From Escherichia coli (lineage in GTDB: Bacteria; Pseudomonadota; Gammaproteobacteria; Enterobacterales; Enterobacteriaceae), in NCBI RefSeq assembly GCF_044324785.1, contig NZ_CP172127.1: 64,000 bases of DNA; one strand, 5' to 3'. The first letter of the stretch is position 1; every line of letters begins with the position of its first letter. Below the pieces are notes generated by a model. That model searched no databases, was not told the origin of the DNA, and worked only from the letters and a program-made list of their open reading frames with translations. A program made the position numbers and the translations under genes. Positions 1 through 9,523 of this stretch are shown here, in pieces.

Positions 1-36
1 AGAAACATCTACCTTACCTGCACTGAGGCATTTACT

Positions 37-1395
37 ATGACTCAACGACGTGATTTACAAGCACTGATCGATGCTGCTCCGGTCGGCAAGATGCAGTGGC
101 GCGTTATCATCTGCTGTTTTCTGGTGGTAATGCTCGATGGTTTTGACACCGCGGCTATCGGCTTTATCGCCCCTGATATTCGCACTCACTGGCAACTCAC
201 CGCAGGCGATCTCGCCCCGCTTTTTGGCGCGGGTCTGCTGGGGTTAACCGCAGGCGCACTGCTTTGTGGTCCGTTGTCCGATCGCTTTGGCCGCAAACGT
301 GTGATTGAGCTGTGCGTCTTTTTGTTTGGCGCGTTAAGCCTCGCCTCGGCTTTCTCACCGGATCTGCAAACGCTGGTATTCCTGCGTTTCCTCACCGGCC
401 TTGGGCTGGGTGGCGCGATGCCAAACACAATTACCATGACCTCGGAATATCTGCCTGCCCGCCGCCGCGGCGCGCTGGTGACGCTGATGTTTTGCGGCTT
501 TACCCTGGGTTCGGCGTTTGGCGGGATTGTCAGCGCGCAGCTGGTGCCGGTGATTGGCTGGCACGGGATCCTGGTGTTGGGTGGCGTATTACCGCTGATG
601 CTGTTTGTTGCACTGCTGGTGGTTCTGCCGGAATCGCCACGCTGGCAGGTGCGCCGCCAGCTACCCCAGGCGGTGATTGCGAAAACCGTCAGCGCCATCA
701 CCCGCGAGCGTTATGTCGATACCCACTTTTATCTCATTGAATCAGCCTCCGTTACAAAAGGCAGCATTCGTCAACTGTTTATGGGGCGTCAGTTACCCAT
801 CACGTTGATGCTGTGGGTGGTGTTCTTTATGAGCTTGCTGATTATTTACCTGCTCTCAAGCTGGATGCCAACGCTGCTCAACCATCGCGGCATCGACCTG
901 CAACATGCCTCCTGGGTTACCGCCGCGTTCCAGATTGGCGGTACGTTGGGCGCGCTGGCGCTGGGCGTGCTGATGGATAAGTTCAATCCTTTCCGCGTAC
1001 TGGCGCTGAGCTATGCCATAGGCGCTGTATGCATCGTGATGATTGGCTTAAGCCAGGACGGATTATGGCTAATGGCGCTGGCGATTTTCGGCACCGGCAT
1101 TGGCATCAGCGGATCGCAGGTGGGGCTGAATGCGCTGACCGCAACACTTTATCCAACACAAAGTCGCGCCACGGGCGTGAGCTGGTCAAACGCCGTGGGC
1201 CGCTGCGGCGCGATTGTTGGCTCGCTGTCTGGCGGCGTGATGATGGCGATGAATTTCTCTTTCGACACCCTGTTTTTCATTATCGCTGTGCCCGCGGCGA
1301 TCAGTGCGGTGATGTTAACCCTGCTGATCACCGTGGTTCGCCAGTCGACCTCTGTCCCTGACTCACTGCCTCACGCAGGTGTTGTGAACGAATAA
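37..1395 (+). CDS. mhbT: MFS transporter, aromatic-acid uptake (3-hydroxybenzoate/gentisate transporter, MhbT-like)
   Basis: 452-aa ORF with MFS signature loop (LSDRFGRKR) and multiple hydrophobic spans; first gene of a T-D-H-I-M ordered gentisate cluster; ATG at 37. Confidence 0.75.
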
Positions 1396-1406
1396 GGAGC
1401 ATCCCA

Positions 1407-2435
1407 ATGACTGATAACAATCAAAATAGCCGCGAGCAATTTTATCAGCATATTTCCGGGCAAAACCTGACCCCGCTGTGGGAGTCACTGCACCATCTGG
1501 TGCCAAAAACGCCCAACGCTAACTGTGCGCCAGCGTACTGGAATTATCAGGAGATCCGCCCGCTGCTGCTGGAGAGCGGCAGCCTGATTGGCGCGAAAGA
1601 AGCCGTGCGCCGCGTGCTGGTGCTGGAAAACCCGGCGCTGCGCGGGCAGTCTTCCATCACCGCGACTTTATATGCCGGTTTGCAACTGATCATGCCGGGC
1701 GAAGTGGCACCGAGTCATCGCCATAACCAGTCGGCGCTGCGTTTTATTGTTGAAGGTAAAGGGGCATTCACCGCCGTTGATGGCGAACGCACGCCAATGA
1801 ATGAGGGCGATTTTATCCTGACCCCGCAGTGGCGCTGGCACGATCACGGTAACCCTGGCGACGAACCGGTTATCTGGCTCGATGGGCTGGATCTGCCATT
1901 AGTGAACACTCTGGGCTGCGGTTTTGCCGAAGATTACCCGGAGGAGCAACAACCAGTAACGCGTAAAGAGGGCGATTACCTGCCGCGTTACGCTGCCAAT
2001 ATGTTGCCGCTGTGCCATCAGACCGGGAACTCCTCGCCCATCTTTAACTACCGTTATGACCGTAGCCGCGAAGTGCTACACGATTTAACCCGCCTGGGCG
2101 ATGCCGATGAGTGGGATGGCTACAAAATGCGCTACGTCAACCCGGTCACCGGTGGCTATCCGATGCCGTCGATGGGCGCTTTCCTGCAACTGCTGCCGAA
2201 AGGGTTTGCCTCACGCGTGGCGCGTACCACTGACAGCACCATCTACCATGTGGTGGAAGGTAGCGGGCAGGTCACTATCGGCAATGAAACCTTCAGCTTT
2301 AGTGCAAAAGATATCTTCGTGGTGCCGACCTGGCACGGCGTGTCGTTCCAGACCACGCAAGATACCGTTTTATTTAGTTTTTCGGACAGACCGGTACAAG
2401 AAGCCCTGGGGCTGTTCCGCGAAGCGCGTTATTAA
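1407..2435 (+). CDS. mhbD: gentisate 1,2-dioxygenase (bicupin)
   Basis: 342-aa ORF, cupin His motifs (HRH, WRWHDH), AAGGAG SD 9 nt upstream of ATG; position in cluster. Confidence 0.8.
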
Positions 2436-2450
2436 TTTGGGAGAGAGAAA

Positions 2451-3152
2451 ATGACTCAATACGTATTCGAACCACAAGCGCCCGTTACCGTACCGGTTGT
2501 TGGCAGTGATGAACAATTCCCCGTACGCCGCGTTTACTGCGTCGGACGTAACTATGCCGCCCACGCCCGCGAAATGGGCTTTGATCCGGATCGTGAACCG
2601 CCATTCTTCTTCTGCAAACCGGCGGATGCCGTTGTTCCGGTTGCCGCTGGCGAAACGCTGGCGCTGCCGTATCCGGCGCAGACCGATAACTACCATTATG
2701 AAATTGAACTGGTGGTGGCGATTGGTAAAAAAGGCAGTGATATCCCGCTGGAAAACGCCCATGAATATGTCTGGGGTTATGCCACGGGTCTTGATATGAC
2801 TCGCCGTGACCGTCAAATGGAAATGCGCCAGATGGGCCGCCCGTGGGAAATCGGCAAAGCGTTCGATCTCTCGGCCCCCATCGCGCCGCTGCACAAAGCC
2901 AGCGAAACTGGCGGTATTGATAACGCACCTATCTGGTTACAGGTTAACGGCGAAGATCATCAGCGCAGCGATATTCGTCATCTCATCTGGTCAGTGAATG
3001 AAACCATCAGCTACCTGTCAGGCTTCTTTGAGCTGCAACCGGGCGATCTAATCTTTACCGGTACGCCGGAAGGGGTTGGCCCAGTAGTCAAAGGTGATGT
3101 GATCACGGGCAACGTCGAGGGCTTAACGCCTATCGCGGTGAAGATTGTCTGA
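2451..3152 (+). CDS. mhbH: fumarylpyruvate hydrolase (FAH family)
   Basis: 233-aa ORF typical of fumarylacetoacetate-hydrolase family; follows dioxygenase. Confidence 0.75.
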
Positions 3153-3156
3153 GGTG

Positions 3157-3804
3157 ATGATGAAGCTGTACAGTTTTTTTAATAGTTCAGCGTCTTACCG
3201 GGTGCGCATTGCGCTGGCGCTGAAGGGTATCGATTACCAGACCGAAGGGGTGAATATCCGCATTGGTCAGCAAAACGAACTGGCCTACCGGCGGATGAAT
3301 CCGGTCGGGCTGGTGCCGACGCTGCTGACCGACGAGGGCGAATCACTCGGACAATCGCTGGCGATTATTGACTGGCTGGAGAGTCACTACCCGCAAGTTC
3401 CGCTGATGCCGCAGGAAGAACCGGCCCGCAACAAGGTGCTGGAAATTGTCTATGCCATCGCCTGCGATATTCATCCATTGAATAACCTACGCGTGCTGCG
3501 CTACCTGACCGAAGAGCTGAACGTCAGTGAAGAAGATAAAAAACGCTGGTATGCGCACTGGATCCAGCAAGGGTTAAGCGCGGTGGAACAGCTACTGCGC
3601 CAGAGCCAGTCGGGGCAATTTTGTGTGGGCGAGACGCCGACGCTGGCAGATTGCTGCCTTGTTCCACAGTGGGCGAACGCGCTACGTATGAACTGCGATC
3701 TGAGCGGGTATCCGCGCTGCAAAGCGGTGTACGACGCCTGCACGCAGCTGCCAGCGTTCATTGCCGCAGCGCCAGAAAATCAACAAGATAAAATTTCAGC
3801 CTGA
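3157..3804 (+). CDS. mhbI: maleylpyruvate isomerase (glutathione S-transferase zeta class)
   Basis: GST-fold ORF; ORF-track start at 3145 is TTG, first ATG at 3157 preceded by GAGGTG; overlaps upstream stop. Confidence 0.7.
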   Translation: MMKLYSFFNSSASYRVRIALALKGIDYQTEGVNIRIGQQNELAYRRMNPVGLVPTLLTDEGESLGQSLAIIDWLESHYPQVPLMPQEEPARNKVLEIVYAIACDIHPLNNLRVLRYLTEELNVSEEDKKRWYAHWIQQGLSAVEQLLRQSQSGQFCVGETPTLADCCLVPQWANALRMNCDLSGYPRCKAVYDACTQLPAFIAAAPENQQDKISA

Positions 3805-3818
3805 CCAGGAGAACCATA

Positions 3819-5012
3819 ATGACTAAAGTGACACGCGCAGTAATTGTGGGAGGCGGGATCGGCGGTGCGGCAACTGCGTTGTCACTGGCCCGCCAGGGGA
3901 TCAAAGTGGTGCTGCTGGAAAAGGCGCATGAGATCGGTGAGATTGGCGCAGGTATCCAGTTGGGGCCAAATGCGTTTTCGGCGTTGGATAGCCTCGGCGT
4001 CGGCGAAATCGCCCGCCAGCGCGCGGTATTCACCGATCACATCACCATGATGGATGCGGTAAACGCCGAAGAAGTGGTGCGCATTGAAACCGGTCAGGCC
4101 TTTCGCGATCATTTCGGCGGCCCTTACGCGGTGATCCACCGGGTTGATATTCACGCCTCGGTGTGGGAAGCGGTACTGACGCATCCGGACGTGGAATATC
4201 ACACCTCCACCAACGTCGTGGATATTCGCGAGACAGAAGACGATGTCACCGTTTTCGACGATCGCGGCAATAGTTGGATCGGCGATATTCTGATTGGCTG
4301 TGACGGCGTGAAGTCAGTGGTGCGCCAGAGCTTATTGGGCGATGCGCCGCGTGTCACCGGGCATGTGGTCTACCGTGCGGTTATCGATTGTGCCGATATG
4401 CCGGAAGATTTGCGCATTAACGCACCAGTACTGTGGGCGGGGCCGTGCTGTCACTTGGTGCATTACCCTTTACGCGGCGGCAAGCAGTATAACCTGGTGG
4501 TGACATTCCACAGCCGCCAGCAGGAAGAGTGGGGCGTGAAGGATGGCAGTAAAGAGGAAGTGCTCTCTTACTTTGAAGGGATTCACCCCCGTCCGCGCCA
4601 GATGCTGGATAAACCGACCTCCTGGCGACGCTGGTCAACCGCCGACCGTGAACCGGTAGCGAAGTGGGGAACGAAGCGCATTACGCTGGTGGGCGATGCG
4701 GCCCATCCGGTGGCGCAGTATATGGCGCAGGGTGCCTGTATGGCGCTGGAAGACGCGGTAACACTGGGTAAGGCGCTGGCGCAGTGTGAGGGTGATGCGG
4801 CACAAGCCTTTGCGCTGTATGAGTCGGTACGTATTCCGCGCACCGCGCGCATCGTCTGGTCGACCCGTGAAATGGGGCGGGTTTATCATGCCGCAGGAGT
4901 AGAGCGCCAGGTACGTAACCTGTTGTGGAAAGGGAAATCGCAGGCAGAGTTTTACCGCGGCATGGAGTGGCTGTACGGCTGGAAAGAAGATAACTGTTTG
5001 CAACCACGCTGA
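3819..5012 (+). CDS. mhbM: 3-hydroxybenzoate 6-hydroxylase (FAD-dependent monooxygenase, salicylate hydroxylase family)
   Basis: 397-aa ORF with N-terminal FAD fingerprint [11 protein letters not shown] and DAAH motif; last gene of cluster. Confidence 0.75.
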
Positions 5013-5073: not shown

Positions 5074-6021
5074 ATGCGTGTGTTACTGGCTCCGATGGAG
5101 GGTGTGCTTGACTCTCTGGTGCGTGAATTGCTGACCGAAGTTAACGACTACGATCTGTGCATCACCGAGTTTGTCCGCGTGGTGGATCAACTGCTGCCGG
5201 TAAAAGTCTTTCATCGCATTTGCCCTGAGCTACAAAACGCCAGCCGGACACCATCCGGTACGCTGGTGCGCGTGCAGTTGTTAGGTCAGTTCCCACAATG
5301 GCTGGCAGAGAATGCCGCCCGTGCGGTCGAGTTAGGTTCCTGGGGCGTGGATCTCAATTGCGGCTGCCCGTCGAAAACGGTTAACGGTAGCGGCGGTGGG
5401 GCGACGTTACTCAAAGATCCTGAACTCATCTATCAGGGTGCAAAAGCGATGCGCGAAGCTGTACCGGCGCATTTGCCCGTAAGCGTAAAAGTGCGTCTGG
5501 GCTGGGACAGCGGTGAGAAGAAATTTGAAATCGCCGATGCGGTGCAACAGGCTGGCGCTACGGAGCTGGTGGTGCATGGGCGGACAAAAGAGCAGGGTTA
5601 CCGCGCGGAGCATATTGACTGGCAGGCGATTGGCGAGATTCGCCAGCGGCTGAATATTCCGGTGATTGCCAACGGTGAAATCTGGGACTGGCAGAGTGCG
5701 CAACAATGCATGGCGATCAGCGGCTGTGACGCAGTGATGATTGGTCGCGGGGCGCTCAATATTCCCAACCTGAGCCGGGTGGTAAAATATAACGAACCGC
5801 GAATGCCGTGGCCGGAGGTGGTTGCTTTGCTGCAAAAATATACCCGTCTGGAAAAGCAGGGCGATACCGGGTTATATCACGTTGCGCGGATTAAACAGTG
5901 GTTGAGTTATTTGCGTAAAGAATACGATGAAGCAACGGAATTATTTCAGCATGTTCGGGTGTTGAATAATTCCCCTGATATTGCAAGGGCTATTCAGGCA
6001 ATTGATATCGAGAAACTCTAA
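5074..6021 (+). CDS. dusC: tRNA-dihydrouridine(16) synthase DusC
   Basis: 315 aa from internal ATG ([13 protein letters not shown]...) matches K-12 DusC N-terminus; ORF track extends 16 codons upstream. Confidence 0.9.
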
Positions 6022-6252
6022 AAAACCATAGTGATGTTTTTTGACAATGTGTTAGCTCTTTATCAATAGGCCGCACGGTTGTTTGGTGGCGTCAAAATCG
6101 CCGAGGCGTTCCCTGAAGGCCGGGGCAGCCCACATGGATGTGGGCTGAGGGCGCGTTTTACAGGGATAATGAGATGGACGCTCCAGATTTTACGGTATCA
6201 AAGTACCAGACTGGATCGTTGCAATACGTCCTGAAAAATTAGGAGCGTCCAC

Positions 6253-7278
6253 ATGAAAGTATCAACTCTTGGTATCGACCTGGCAAAGAACGTTTTTCAG
6301 CTTCATGGTGTCGATCATGAAGGCCATACTATTTTGCGTAAAAAACTCACCCGGGCTAAGTTTGTTCAGTTTGTGATTCAACTGGAACCTTGTCTGATTG
6401 GCATGGAAGCCTGCTCATCCAGTCATTATTTTGCGCGATTATTCACCCGCTATGGTCATGAGGTAAAACTCATACCTCCGCAGTATGTGAAGCCTTATGT
6501 GAAAACGAACAAGACGGATGCAGCAGATGCTGAAGCAATCTGCGAAGCGGTAACCCGTCCGAATATGCGTTTTGTTCAGATAAAAACCGAAGAGCAGCAG
6601 GCCGTTTTAGCGTTACACACTGAACGGGGAATACTTATCCGTGAGCGGATTGCCTGTGCCAATAGTTTAAGAGCCACACTTGCTGAGTTTGGTATTACGA
6701 TTGCGGCCGGACAAAGCCATTTAACCCGTGAGCTGCCAGCCATTCTGGAGGATGGCGAAAATGGTTTATCTCCCTTTGTCAGAACCAGCATCTACAGACA
6801 GTCTAAACATATCCGGGAACTTGAAGAACAAGTTAAACAGGTAGAAGAAGCTCTGGCCTCCTGGTATAGAACGCAGGAAGCCTGCCAGAGAATGGCCAAA
6901 ATCCCGGGGGTTGGCATGCTAACGGCCACTTATGTGGTAGCAGCAGTGGGTAATGCCCGACAATTCAGTACCGCAAAGCAGTTCGCTTCATGGCTGGGGC
7001 TGACACCAAAGGAACATTCCAGCGGCGGGAAACAGCAACTGGGAGGGATCAGCAAACGTGGAGATGGATATTTCCGATACCTGCTGGTTCACGGCGCACG
7101 CGCACTTACCGCCTGGGTCAACCGAAACGGCGCGGTTGAGGAGAATTCCTGGCTTCAGGGACTCCTTGAGCGGAAGCACTACAATGTAGCTGTTGTCGCC
7201 ATGGCGGCAAAAACAGCGAGGATCATGTGGTCAATGTTGTCACACAATACTGAATATCAACCTCGGCAGCTCGCCTGA
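6253..7278 (+). CDS. IS110-family DEDD transposase/recombinase
   Basis: 341-aa ORF, N-terminal LGIDLAK RuvC-like motif, strong similarity in pattern to IS4321/IS5075-type transposases. Confidence 0.9.
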   Translation: MKVSTLGIDLAKNVFQLHGVDHEGHTILRKKLTRAKFVQFVIQLEPCLIGMEACSSSHYFARLFTRYGHEVKLIPPQYVKPYVKTNKTDAADAEAICEAVTRPNMRFVQIKTEEQQAVLALHTERGILIRERIACANSLRATLAEFGITIAAGQSHLTRELPAILEDGENGLSPFVRTSIYRQSKHIRELEEQVKQVEEALASWYRTQEACQRMAKIPGVGMLTATYVVAAVGNARQFSTAKQFASWLGLTPKEHSSGGKQQLGGISKRGDGYFRYLLVHGARALTAWVNRNGAVEENSWLQGLLERKHYNVAVVAMAAKTARIMWSMLSHNTEYQPRQLA

Positions 7279-7538
7279 CACAAGGTCAGTCAATCTGACG
7301 AGGTGCTGAAAAAAAGTTAACGTCCTGGTAGGTGCAGGTGACTTCAGAAGATGGCAAAACAGGTAAGACCGCAGGCAGGATACACCGAGAGGTAACAAGG
7401 GCAAGTTAGCCCGTAGAGGATGATTGGTACCTGCCTGGCGGATTTCATCATGGTTCGGGATAAAAATCCCATCAGAAACCGGATATATGGCTGCACCTAC
7501 CCGTTTTATTACATAACTGAAGAAAGCATTGCATTCCG
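7279..7538 (+). ncRNA. candidate IS-encoded structured ncRNA (bridge/seek-RNA-like) in 3' non-coding end of the IS
   Basis: 260-nt non-coding stretch between transposase stop and right IR containing 11-bp long-range inverted repeat GGTAGGTGCAG (7327-7337) / CTGCACCTACC (7491-7501). Confidence 0.3.
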
Positions 7539-7779
7539 GGAGCGTCCATATATGTTACCTCGCGCCCGACCCGGTAGCCGTAAGGGATAAGCCGAGGGCA
7601 CCGCGCAGCGGCGATTTTGTTCGCCAGAGCCCGGGGGTGCAGGGGGCGGCGGCGATTGGCCGCCCCCTGCGCGCTCCTTGCGCCAGTGATTATATGAAGC
7701 AATGCACATGACAGGAGCGCAACAGGATGAGAGACTGAAATATTCTCGTTATTTTCGGATCTGATGACATTAATTAATT

Positions 7780-7863
7780 TTAAAATATCATCTTAAATAC
7801 GCCAGTCACCACCAGTAGCCCAATCAGGAAAATAATCAATACAGCCCAGAGTATAATTTTCAT
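7780..7863 (-). CDS. yohP: small membrane protein YohP (27 aa)
   Basis: Manual translation of minus strand gives MKIILWAVLIIFLIGLLVVTGVFKMIF; below ORF-track length cut-off. Confidence 0.85.
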   Translation of the reverse strand: MKIILWAVLIIFLIGLLVVTGVFKMIF

Positions 7864-8086
7864 TGGCGTTCCTTTATTTGTGAGTGCTGAATAAGTATAG
7901 GAAAAAACGAAGTCCTTTGCCGTTATCCATAAACGATTAAGATAAATCGGAAGATATCATTCACTTAGTGTATATTTTTCTGGATATGTCATATTATTGC
8001 CACTGATGTTTTGCCACGCGAAACTAAAAAATATATCGCAACACACGGTAATCTCCGCGCACCTTTTCTTACCTGATTATTCCCCC

Positions 8087-9523
8087 ATGAATCGTGATTC
8101 CTTTTATCCCGCCATCGCCTGTTTTCCGCTGTTACTGATGCTGGCCGGGTGTGCGCCTATGCATGAAACCCGCCAGGCGTTAAGCCAGCAAACGCCTGCT
8201 GCACAAGTTGACACCGCATTACCCACGGCGCTGAAAAATGGTTGGCCAGACAGCCAATGGTGGCTGGAGTATCACGATAATCAGCTCACTTCCTTAATTA
8301 ACAATGCACTACAGAACGCACCGGATATGCAGGTGGCTGAACAGCGCATTCAGCTAGCTGAAGCCCAGGCGAAGGCAGTTGCTACTCAGGATGGTCCGCA
8401 GATCGACTTTTCTGCGGATATGGAGCGGCAAAAAATGTCGGCAGAAGGGTTAATGGGGCCGTTTGCTCTGAACGATCCTGCCGCAGGTACGACCGGTCCG
8501 TGGTACACCAACGGTACTTTTGGCTTAACGGCGGGCTGGCATCTCGATATCTGGGGAAAGAATCGGGCGGAGGTAACTGCTCGCCTGGGTACGGTTAAAG
8601 CACGAGCGGCGGAACGCGAGCAAACCCGCCAATTGCTGGCTGGCAGCGTAGCCCGCCTGTACTGGGAGTGGCAAACCCAGGCGGCGTTAAACACTGTCTT
8701 ACAGCAAATCGAAAAAGAGCAGAACACCATTATCGCCACCGATCGCCAGCTATATCAGAACGGGATTACTTCTTCAGTTGAAGGTGTGGAAACCGATATT
8801 AATGCCAGCAAAACCCGGCAGCAGCTCAACGATGTCGCGGGGAAAATGAAAATTATTGAGGCACGGTTAAGCGCACTTACAAATCACCAGACAAAGTCAC
8901 TGAAGCTTAAACCGGTCGCGTTGCCGAAAGTGGCAAGCCAGCTTCCTGATGAACTGGGGTACTCCTTACTGGCGCGGCGGGCAGATTTGCAGGCGGCGCA
9001 CTGGTACGTTGAGTCATCGTTAAGCACCATTGATGCGGCAAAAGCGGCATTTTATCCTGACATCAACCTGATGGCCTTCCTGCAACAGGATGCGTTGCAC
9101 TTAAGCGATCTGTTCCGTCATTCCGCGCAGCAAATGGGCGTTACGGCAGGCCTGACGCTACCCATTTTCGATAGTGGTCGTCTTAACGCCAATCTCGATA
9201 TCGCAAAAGCCGAAAGCAACTTGTCTATCGCCAGCTACAACAAAGCGGTGGTTGAAGCGGTGAATGACGTGGCGCGGGCAGCCAGTCAGGTTCAGACACT
9301 GGCGGAGAAAAACCAGCATCAGGCGCAAATTGAGCGCGATGCCTTGCGTGTAGTTGGTCTTGCGCAGGCGCGCTTTAACGCGGGCATCATTGCCGGTTCC
9401 CGCGTCAGCGAAGCCAGAATCCCGGCGCTTCGCGAGCGGGCCAATGGCCTGTTATTGCAAGGGCAGTGGCTGGATGCCTCCATTCAACTCACTGGTGCGT
9501 TGGGCGGGGGTTACAAACGCTGA
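8087..9523 (+). CDS. mdtQ: outer-membrane efflux channel (TolC/OprM family) MdtQ, intact
   Basis: 478 aa from ATG at 8087 (MNRDSFYPAIACFPLLLMLAGC lipobox); uninterrupted reading frame. Confidence 0.85.
   Translation: MNRDSFYPAIACFPLLLMLAGCAPMHETRQALSQQTPAAQVDTALPTALKNGWPDSQWWLEYHDNQLTSLINNALQNAPDMQVAEQRIQLAEAQAKAVATQDGPQIDFSADMERQKMSAEGLMGPFALNDPAAGTTGPWYTNGTFGLTAGWHLDIWGKNRAEVTARLGTVKARAAEREQTRQLLAGSVARLYWEWQTQAALNTVLQQIEKEQNTIIATDRQLYQNGITSSVEGVETDINASKTRQQLNDVAGKMKIIEARLSALTNHQTKSLKLKPVALPKVASQLPDELGYSLLARRADLQAAHWYVESSLSTIDAAKAAFYPDINLMAFLQQDALHLSDLFRHSAQQMGVTAGLTLPIFDSGRLNANLDIAKAESNLSIASYNKAVVEAVNDVARAASQVQTLAEKNQHQAQIERDALRVVGLAQARFNAGIIAGSRVSEARIPALRERANGLLLQGQWLDASIQLTGALGGGYKR

Follow-up and report, generated by a model that had tools for sequence, protein, structure and literature searches.

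The small membrane protein gene yohP and an IS110-family element inserted downstream of it in an Escherichia coli genome

The window analyzed here, a stretch of 64,000 nucleotides from Escherichia coli (RefSeq assembly GCF_044324785.1, contig NZ_CP172127.1), carries at positions 7780–7863 on its minus strand yohP, a known, annotated, and experimentally verified gene. An insertion sequence (IS) of the IS110/IS1111 family is located in the spacer between yohP and dusC, within the second hairpin loop of a structured repeat and 226 bp past the yohP stop codon; its insertion was in all likelihood site-specific and without consequence for yohP. This IS1111-type member of the IS110 family entered the dusC–yohP spacer, not next to yohP, with an RNA from its 3′ non-coding region probably guiding it into the second-hairpin loop; the yohP gene, its ribosome-binding site, the upstream region, and 226 bp of 3′ flank are unaltered. 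As far as yohP itself is concerned, the finding adds nothing new, the gene being annotated, characterized, and untouched by the IS, and it mainly serves as a practical reminder that real genes are missed by open reading frame (ORF) filters of at least 60 amino acids.

Identity and genomic context of yohP

Translation of the minus strand at 7780–7863 yields MKIILWAVLIIFLIGLLVVTGVFKMIF followed by a stop, that is, an ATG-initiated ORF of 27 codons plus a TAA stop codon that also appeared in the ORF listing. The encoded peptide is 100% identical to YohP of E. coli K-12 (b4679). It was recognized by the NCBIfam equivalog model NF011345 (“small membrane protein YohP”), which matched residues 1–27 of 27 with 67.3 bits versus a cut-off of 58, and by the Pfam YohP model PF25659, with 50.6 bits versus a cut-off of 27. 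An exact look-up of the peptide retrieved at least 1000 contigs with the product named YohP, and in virtually all of the best-matching E. coli genomes the RefSeq annotation has yohP here. Together with the published tagging of the protein, the K-12 identity, the family models, and the RefSeq annotation make yohP an already known gene. The gene call of the preliminary description, a 27-amino-acid YohP on the minus strand that forms a single-helix membrane peptide and was skipped by a 60-amino-acid ORF filter, was thus right, and was borne out by the translation, the two family models, and the identity to K-12.

In the 8 kb surrounding yohP, 143 ORFs of at least 20 amino acids overlap, so that the yohP ORF by itself is no evidence of a gene and its identity derives from homology. 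This plenitude of short ORFs is also the one point in favor of the alternative that the 27-codon frame arose by chance or is untranslated in this strain. Such an explanation is nevertheless hardly credible, as two family models were exceeded at their curated cut-offs, the same protein was detected by chromosomal tagging in K-12 (PMC12719787, PMC12542507), a good Shine-Dalgarno sequence precedes the gene, and the peptide is conserved across Escherichia species despite diverging flanks. A tblastn search found YohP intact in all examined loci, which represented E. coli, E. whittamii, and Escherichia sp. E1V33; 10 copies were 100% identical and one carried the substitution I10F. The frame, whose disruption in related genomes the preliminary description had named as an argument against the gene, is accordingly undisrupted in the Escherichia loci examined, while the curated family models and the literature form the basis for conservation of YohP outside this genus.

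The Shine-Dalgarno sequence AAGGA, read directly from the minus strand at 7870–7874, lies 6 nt upstream of the yohP ATG. Further upstream, about 31 nt from the ATG, the heptamer CTATACT (7894–7900, minus strand) is a candidate −10 element of the sigma-S type. A consensus scan found no sigma-70 promoter upstream of yohP. From the CTATACT sequence we infer a promoter of the sigma-S type, which would fit the stationary-phase induction of YohP in E. coli (PMC12719787) and would also agree with the reported properties of the Salmonella orthologue, a short, small RNA (sRNA)-sized, and sigma-S-dependent transcript named STnc1330 (PMC5437024).

For translation and function of YohP in the sequenced strain, the literature on the identical K-12 protein serves as the source. 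The gene is conserved in enterobacteria, and its product is a single-helix protein of the inner membrane made chiefly in stationary phase and when nutrients are limiting. Insertion of the K-12 protein into the membrane has been shown in insertion assays, and YohP has been detected as a chromosomally encoded SPA-tagged form expressed from the native promoter, with levels of YohP-SPA rising in stationary phase, in minimal medium, and at low oxygen (PMC12719787; PMC12542507). Its production lowers the membrane potential, alters the make-up of the lipids, and triggers the stringent response (PMC12719787), and it correlates with condensation of the nucleoid (PMC12542507); according to the literature, YohP pushes cells toward a state of low metabolism. 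YohP is described as a model substrate for post-translational targeting through the signal recognition particle (SRP) (PMC7549839) and for mRNA targeting. Targeting of the yohP mRNA to the membrane has been ascribed to the coding sequence, which is enough for this purpose, the untranslated regions being dispensable.

The order of genes at the locus is dusC (plus strand), the IS110-family transposase gene (plus), yohP (minus), mdtQ (plus), and yohF. The upstream neighbor dusC (5074–6021, plus strand) encodes tRNA dihydrouridine(16) synthase, and mdtQ (8087–9523, plus strand) is divergent from yohP. K-12 has the identical order except that the IS is absent and mdtQ is a pseudogene. The position between dusC and mdtQ, divergent from the latter, is a conserved feature of yohP (PMC12719787) that is present in the window. 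The mdtQ gene is intact here, with 478 codons and a match to NF008524 of 1025 bits. Directly upstream of dusC, at positions 1–5012, the window contains a gene cluster for the degradation of 3-hydroxybenzoate and gentisate, which comprises mhbT, gtdA, a gene of the fumarylacetoacetate hydrolase family, maiA, and a gene for 3-hydroxybenzoate 6-monooxygenase (3819–5012). In K-12 this place is taken by yohJK, and the cluster was found in 611 of the 5426 complete E. coli genomes.

The insertion sequence and its distance from yohP

The boundaries of the IS were observed in an alignment with the empty site of K-12. The IS-free K-12 sequence aligned in two collinear blocks, 5900–6167 (267 of 268 positions identical) and 7552–7946 (393 of 395), which overlap by the dinucleotide AT. 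The element thus delimited spans 1384 bp (6168–7551, plus strand) and is bounded by a 2-bp duplication of AT at 6166–6167 and 7552–7553. It contains a transposase gene for a protein of 341 amino acids (6253–7278, plus strand) that is convergent with yohP and is the next gene downstream of it. The transposase was assigned to NCBIfam NF033542 (“IS110 family RNA-guided transposase”; 359 bits versus a cut-off of 140) and has the Pfam domains DEDD_Tnp_IS110 (PF01548; 56.7 bits) in its N-terminal and Transposase_20 (PF02371; 87 bits) in its C-terminal part. Subterminal inverted repeats are located at 6174–6184 (ATGGACGCTCC) and 7539–7549 (GGAGCGTCCAT), both given for the plus strand. The non-coding DNA of the IS is distributed unevenly, with 273 bp after the transposase stop codon versus 85 bp before the start codon. 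Based on its predicted fold and on the IS1111-type layout of the element, the 3′ non-coding region (7279–7551, plus strand) is a candidate for encoding a seekRNA or bridge RNA. Its fold is more stable than those of 200 out of 200 shuffled sequences (z = −2.9), and a scan against Rfam found no family matching the non-coding region of the IS. IS1111-type elements are characterized in the literature by inverted repeats in subterminal position and by an extended non-coding stretch, following the transposase gene, that encodes a target-selecting seekRNA (PMC11187229).

Among 5426 complete E. coli genomes, 179 carry the element, at one to four sites each, and in 112 of these it occupies the dusC–yohP site. 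Its target site is constant: the junction sequences TTTTACAGGGAT (left) and ATGTTACCTCGCG (right) are the same in the dusC–yohP spacer, in both orientations of the repeat residing there, and at yegH–asmA. The left junction was found in 173 of the 175 genomes with a full-length copy of the IS, and the exact point of insertion (ACAGGGAT^GTTACC), within the repeat’s hairpin 2 loop, is the same at three loci. A candidate for the sequence that recognizes this target is the 9-nt stretch GAGGTAACA (7389–7397, plus strand) in the 3′ non-coding region, whose reverse complement is the target’s right half (TGTTACCTC) and which the predicted fold places within an internal loop, with a small hairpin adjacent to it. 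A variant IS with 96% identity (locus L012) has entered an IS66 transposase gene, where GCTACCTC adjoins it, and its guide position carries GAGGTAGCA, so that guide and target show a matching change (A to G / T to C). This natural co-variation of guide and target supports guidance of the IS by an RNA, and insertion is probably site-specific and directed by an RNA from the element’s own 3′ non-coding region. When a second guide, complementary to the bottom strand, was sought next to the first, only GGAU matched, which is unconvincing.

With regard to yohP, the alignment boundaries place the right end of the IS 226 bp from the stop codon, so that the element does not adjoin the gene. The preliminary description had correctly placed an IS110-family element downstream of yohP, but the two do not abut. 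It had also suggested a comparison of the 3′ flank with strains lacking the IS. When the IS is left aside, the flank and its IS-free K-12 counterpart agree in 99.5% of positions (393 of 395), and the 226 bp between the stop codon and the IS are essentially unchanged. A canonical intrinsic terminator was predicted neither in the IS-bearing nor in the IS-free yohP flank, and a search of literature supplements for data mapping the 3′ end of yohP found none. The proposition that the element could alter the termination or expression of yohP, conceivable in itself, found no support here, and we infer that the IS has no effect on yohP.

The contrary reading is that the IS changes yohP expression because the natural 3′ end of the mRNA was lost, because a longer or less stable transcript is made, or because antisense transcription has changed. 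Several features of the locus lend themselves to it. No canonical terminator is predicted in the interval separating the IS from the stop codon of yohP, and a transcript that continued for more than about 226 nt beyond this codon would enter the element and run antisense to its non-coding region. The IS occupies the only non-coding stretch downstream of yohP. Plus-strand transcripts reading through from either dusC or the transposase gene would run antisense to yohP, and what precedes that path is altered by the IS. Moreover, an IS-associated rearrangement at the same site doubled yohP in another strain, N3. These points are outweighed by others, which render an influence on expression improbable: the 226 bp that separate the stop codon from the IS are native 3′ flank and contain two strong hairpins; the sRNA-sized transcript STnc1330 of Salmonella (PMC5437024) is short, which suggests that the yohP mRNA ends near the ORF; the coding sequence alone is enough for targeting of the mRNA to the membrane; and in about 2000 of the 5426 genomes the entire 3′ flank differs while yohP is the same. 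A promoter-like site on the plus strand at 7764–7791 (ATGACA-16-TATCAT), antisense to yohP, was also considered and rejected, since one such site was found versus 2.0 expected by chance; its −35 element lies in sequence that is missing from the other allele of the spacer.

The structured repeat in the dusC–yohP spacer

The target of the IS is a structured, G + C-rich repeat of about 270 bp in the dusC–yohP spacer that is split by the element into two arms (about 6070–6167 and 7554–7730); an intact version is found, for example, at locus L002 (5087–5400). The left arm (6070–6167, plus strand) contains hairpin 1 (6126–6147) with the loop ACAUGGAUGU and the 5′ half of hairpin 2, which ends with ACAGGGAT; the IS cuts hairpin 2 just after GGAU. 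The right arm (7554–7730, plus strand) carries the remaining, 3′ half of hairpin 2 along with the closing stems and a G + C-rich hairpin at 7639–7670. It fills most of the spacing between the IS and yohP and holds a stem of 12 bp composed of G and C. E. coli has the repeat at three loci, which are the dusC–yohP, aqpZ–lysO, and yegH–asmA spacers. A pattern scan of species-representative genomes revealed related two-hairpin elements in Escherichia species, Pseudocitrobacter, Kluyvera, several gammaproteobacterial metagenome-assembled genomes, and Lachnospiraceae. A literature search for a published name of the repeat was uninformative.

Covariation of the repeat was observed in an RNAalifold analysis of 25 enterobacterial copies, which recovered an outer stem, two hairpins, and the 3′ G + C hairpin. 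The structure is 98.7% paired and contains 11 compensatory pairs across the 25 copies, values that were reached by none of 500 shuffled alignments, and slid controls showed 41–49% pairing. Loop 1 reads AUGGAU in all 25 copies. The copies from Kluyvera and MGYG have AUGGAU in loop 2 as well, and those of E. coli have AGGGAU or AAGGAC there. The repeat thus shows the arrangement of the TwoAYGGAY motif (RF01731), two adjacent hairpins of the AYGGAY type inside an outer stem, with support from covariation. The intact K-12 copy scored 30.9 bits and the aqpZ–lysO copy 30.8 bits with the RF01731 model, both below the gathering threshold of 43; a Pseudocitrobacter locus passed this threshold (49.2 bits), and the copies in Lachnospiraceae are bona fide TwoAYGGAY motifs with 72–79 bits. 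An Rfam scan of the window region itself returned chance-level matches alone (AgvB with an E-value of 0.22, and mir-611).

In about 2000 of the 5426 genomes (approximately 37%), similarity to the window ends exactly at the yohP stop codon (breakpoint 7778). In this alternative allele the repeat is reversed and lies in sense with yohP, roughly 70–80 nt past the stop codon. This orientation occurs in E. coli E69 and in the examined representatives of E. whittamii and Escherichia sp. E1V33, and the alternative spacer was found at loci L003 (2616–3002), L004, L006, L035, L044, and L047. The repeat copy at aqpZ–lysO also exists in both orientations (L005 versus L007). A simple inversion between flanking inverted repeats was rejected as the origin of the two alleles, because the sequences linking the repeat to dusC and yohP also differ between them. 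As YohP is unchanged in both alleles, the gene evidently tolerates complete replacement of its 3′ flank.

A different kind of rearrangement was encountered in E. coli strain N3 (L008, 560–1500), which has two identical yohP genes owing to a tandem duplication of 468 bp. The duplicated segment runs from the start codon of mdtQ, takes in yohP, and extends to the repeat’s left arm, with its junction falling precisely on the AT where the IS inserts. This suggests an event mediated by the IS or a recombinase. Given its position, recombination or IS activity at this site can change the copy number of yohP.

A further alternative is that the repeat, and not yohP, matters at this locus, as a putative functional RNA, for example one that binds CsrA, which the IS has inactivated. 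It would be part of the dusC 3′ region in the window and of the yohP 3′ untranslated region in the other allele. The compensatory pairs and extensive pairing described above are in favor of such an RNA, as is the likeness to TwoAYGGAY, with copies above the threshold in Pseudocitrobacter and Lachnospiraceae. The abundant G–U pairs point to a single sense strand, which in the window is the plus strand, in sense with dusC and antisense to yohP. In addition, the loops of the two hairpins (ACAUGGAUGU and UACAGGGAUGU) are similar to the consensus obtained for CsrA by SELEX (RUACARGGAUGU), the TwoAYGGAY motif has been proposed in the literature to bind CsrA, and the repeat is found in either orientation next to yohP. 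However, the E. coli copies stay under the Rfam gathering threshold, and the structure could just as well serve as DNA or be left over from a mobile element. Judged from sequence comparisons, the alternative appears unlikely, if clearly less so than an effect of the IS on yohP expression or a spurious ORF. A slightly more doubtful extension of it is that the orientation of the repeat, with its two CsrA-type hairpins, attaches the putative RNA to the transcript of dusC (in the window and in K-12) or to that of yohP (in the approximately 37% of E. coli genomes with the other allele and in the examined E. whittamii and Escherichia sp. E1V33 representatives), and that an IS landing at the loop of hairpin 2 destroys the element. 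If this were true, the stationary-phase peptide YohP would be tied to the Csr network, though just in certain lineages.

The preferred reading remains that of a known gene unaffected by a site-specific insertion in its vicinity. The repeat could nonetheless matter more than the yohP finding, being an unannotated, covarying, multi-copy element of E. coli with CsrA-like hairpins and a polymorphic orientation. It is also a specific landing pad for a putatively RNA-guided IS, for which the co-variation of guide and target lends support to guidance. Both the idea of an RNA function and the targeting rule of the IS are directly testable in K-12.

Published resequencing data of K-12 (tables in PMC11510482) list intermediate-frequency breseq calls at 915,226 and at 2,229,177/2,229,205, which fall in the ybjE/aqpZ and yohP/dusC spacers, respectively, and there within copies of the repeat. 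Polymorphism calls in these spacers are expected of repeat copies, and they probably represent mis-mapped reads or gene conversion between the copies and not adaptive changes.

Relationship to known systems

The closest counterpart of the gene is yohP of K-12, which encodes the same 27-amino-acid sequence, has the neighbors dusC and mdtQ, and shows the same divergence from the latter. Compared with K-12, the gene in the window is unchanged, whereas mdtQ is intact, an IS is located 226 bp downstream, and the 3-hydroxybenzoate/gentisate cluster precedes dusC. The Salmonella transcript STnc1330 is similar in that it contains the orthologous small ORF and is expressed in stationary phase in dependence on sigma-S, to which the sigma-S-like CTATACT upstream of yohP would correspond; this likeness is drawn from the published description of STnc1330 and from the presumptive promoter assignment in the window.

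With the TwoAYGGAY motif (RF01731) the repeat shares an outer stem around two hairpins, loops of the form A-Y/R-GGA-Y, a multi-copy nature, and an occurrence in both Gammaproteobacteria and gut Clostridia. It differs in that the E. coli repeat, with about 31 bits, stays below the 43-bit threshold, has AGGGAU instead of AYGGAY in loop 2 of the K-12 type, and possesses an additional 3′ G + C hairpin and about 100 more conserved bases.

The IS, finally, resembles IS1111-type members of the IS110 family such as ISEc11, ISPa11, and ISKpn4 in its DEDD transposase of 341 amino acids and its subterminal inverted repeats. As in other IS1111-type elements, the transposase gene is followed by a long non-coding region with a short stretch complementary to the target, and insertion is strictly site-specific with a tiny duplication. 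Unlike the named IS1111-type elements, however, the element described here has as its target the hairpin loop of a TwoAYGGAY-like repeat.
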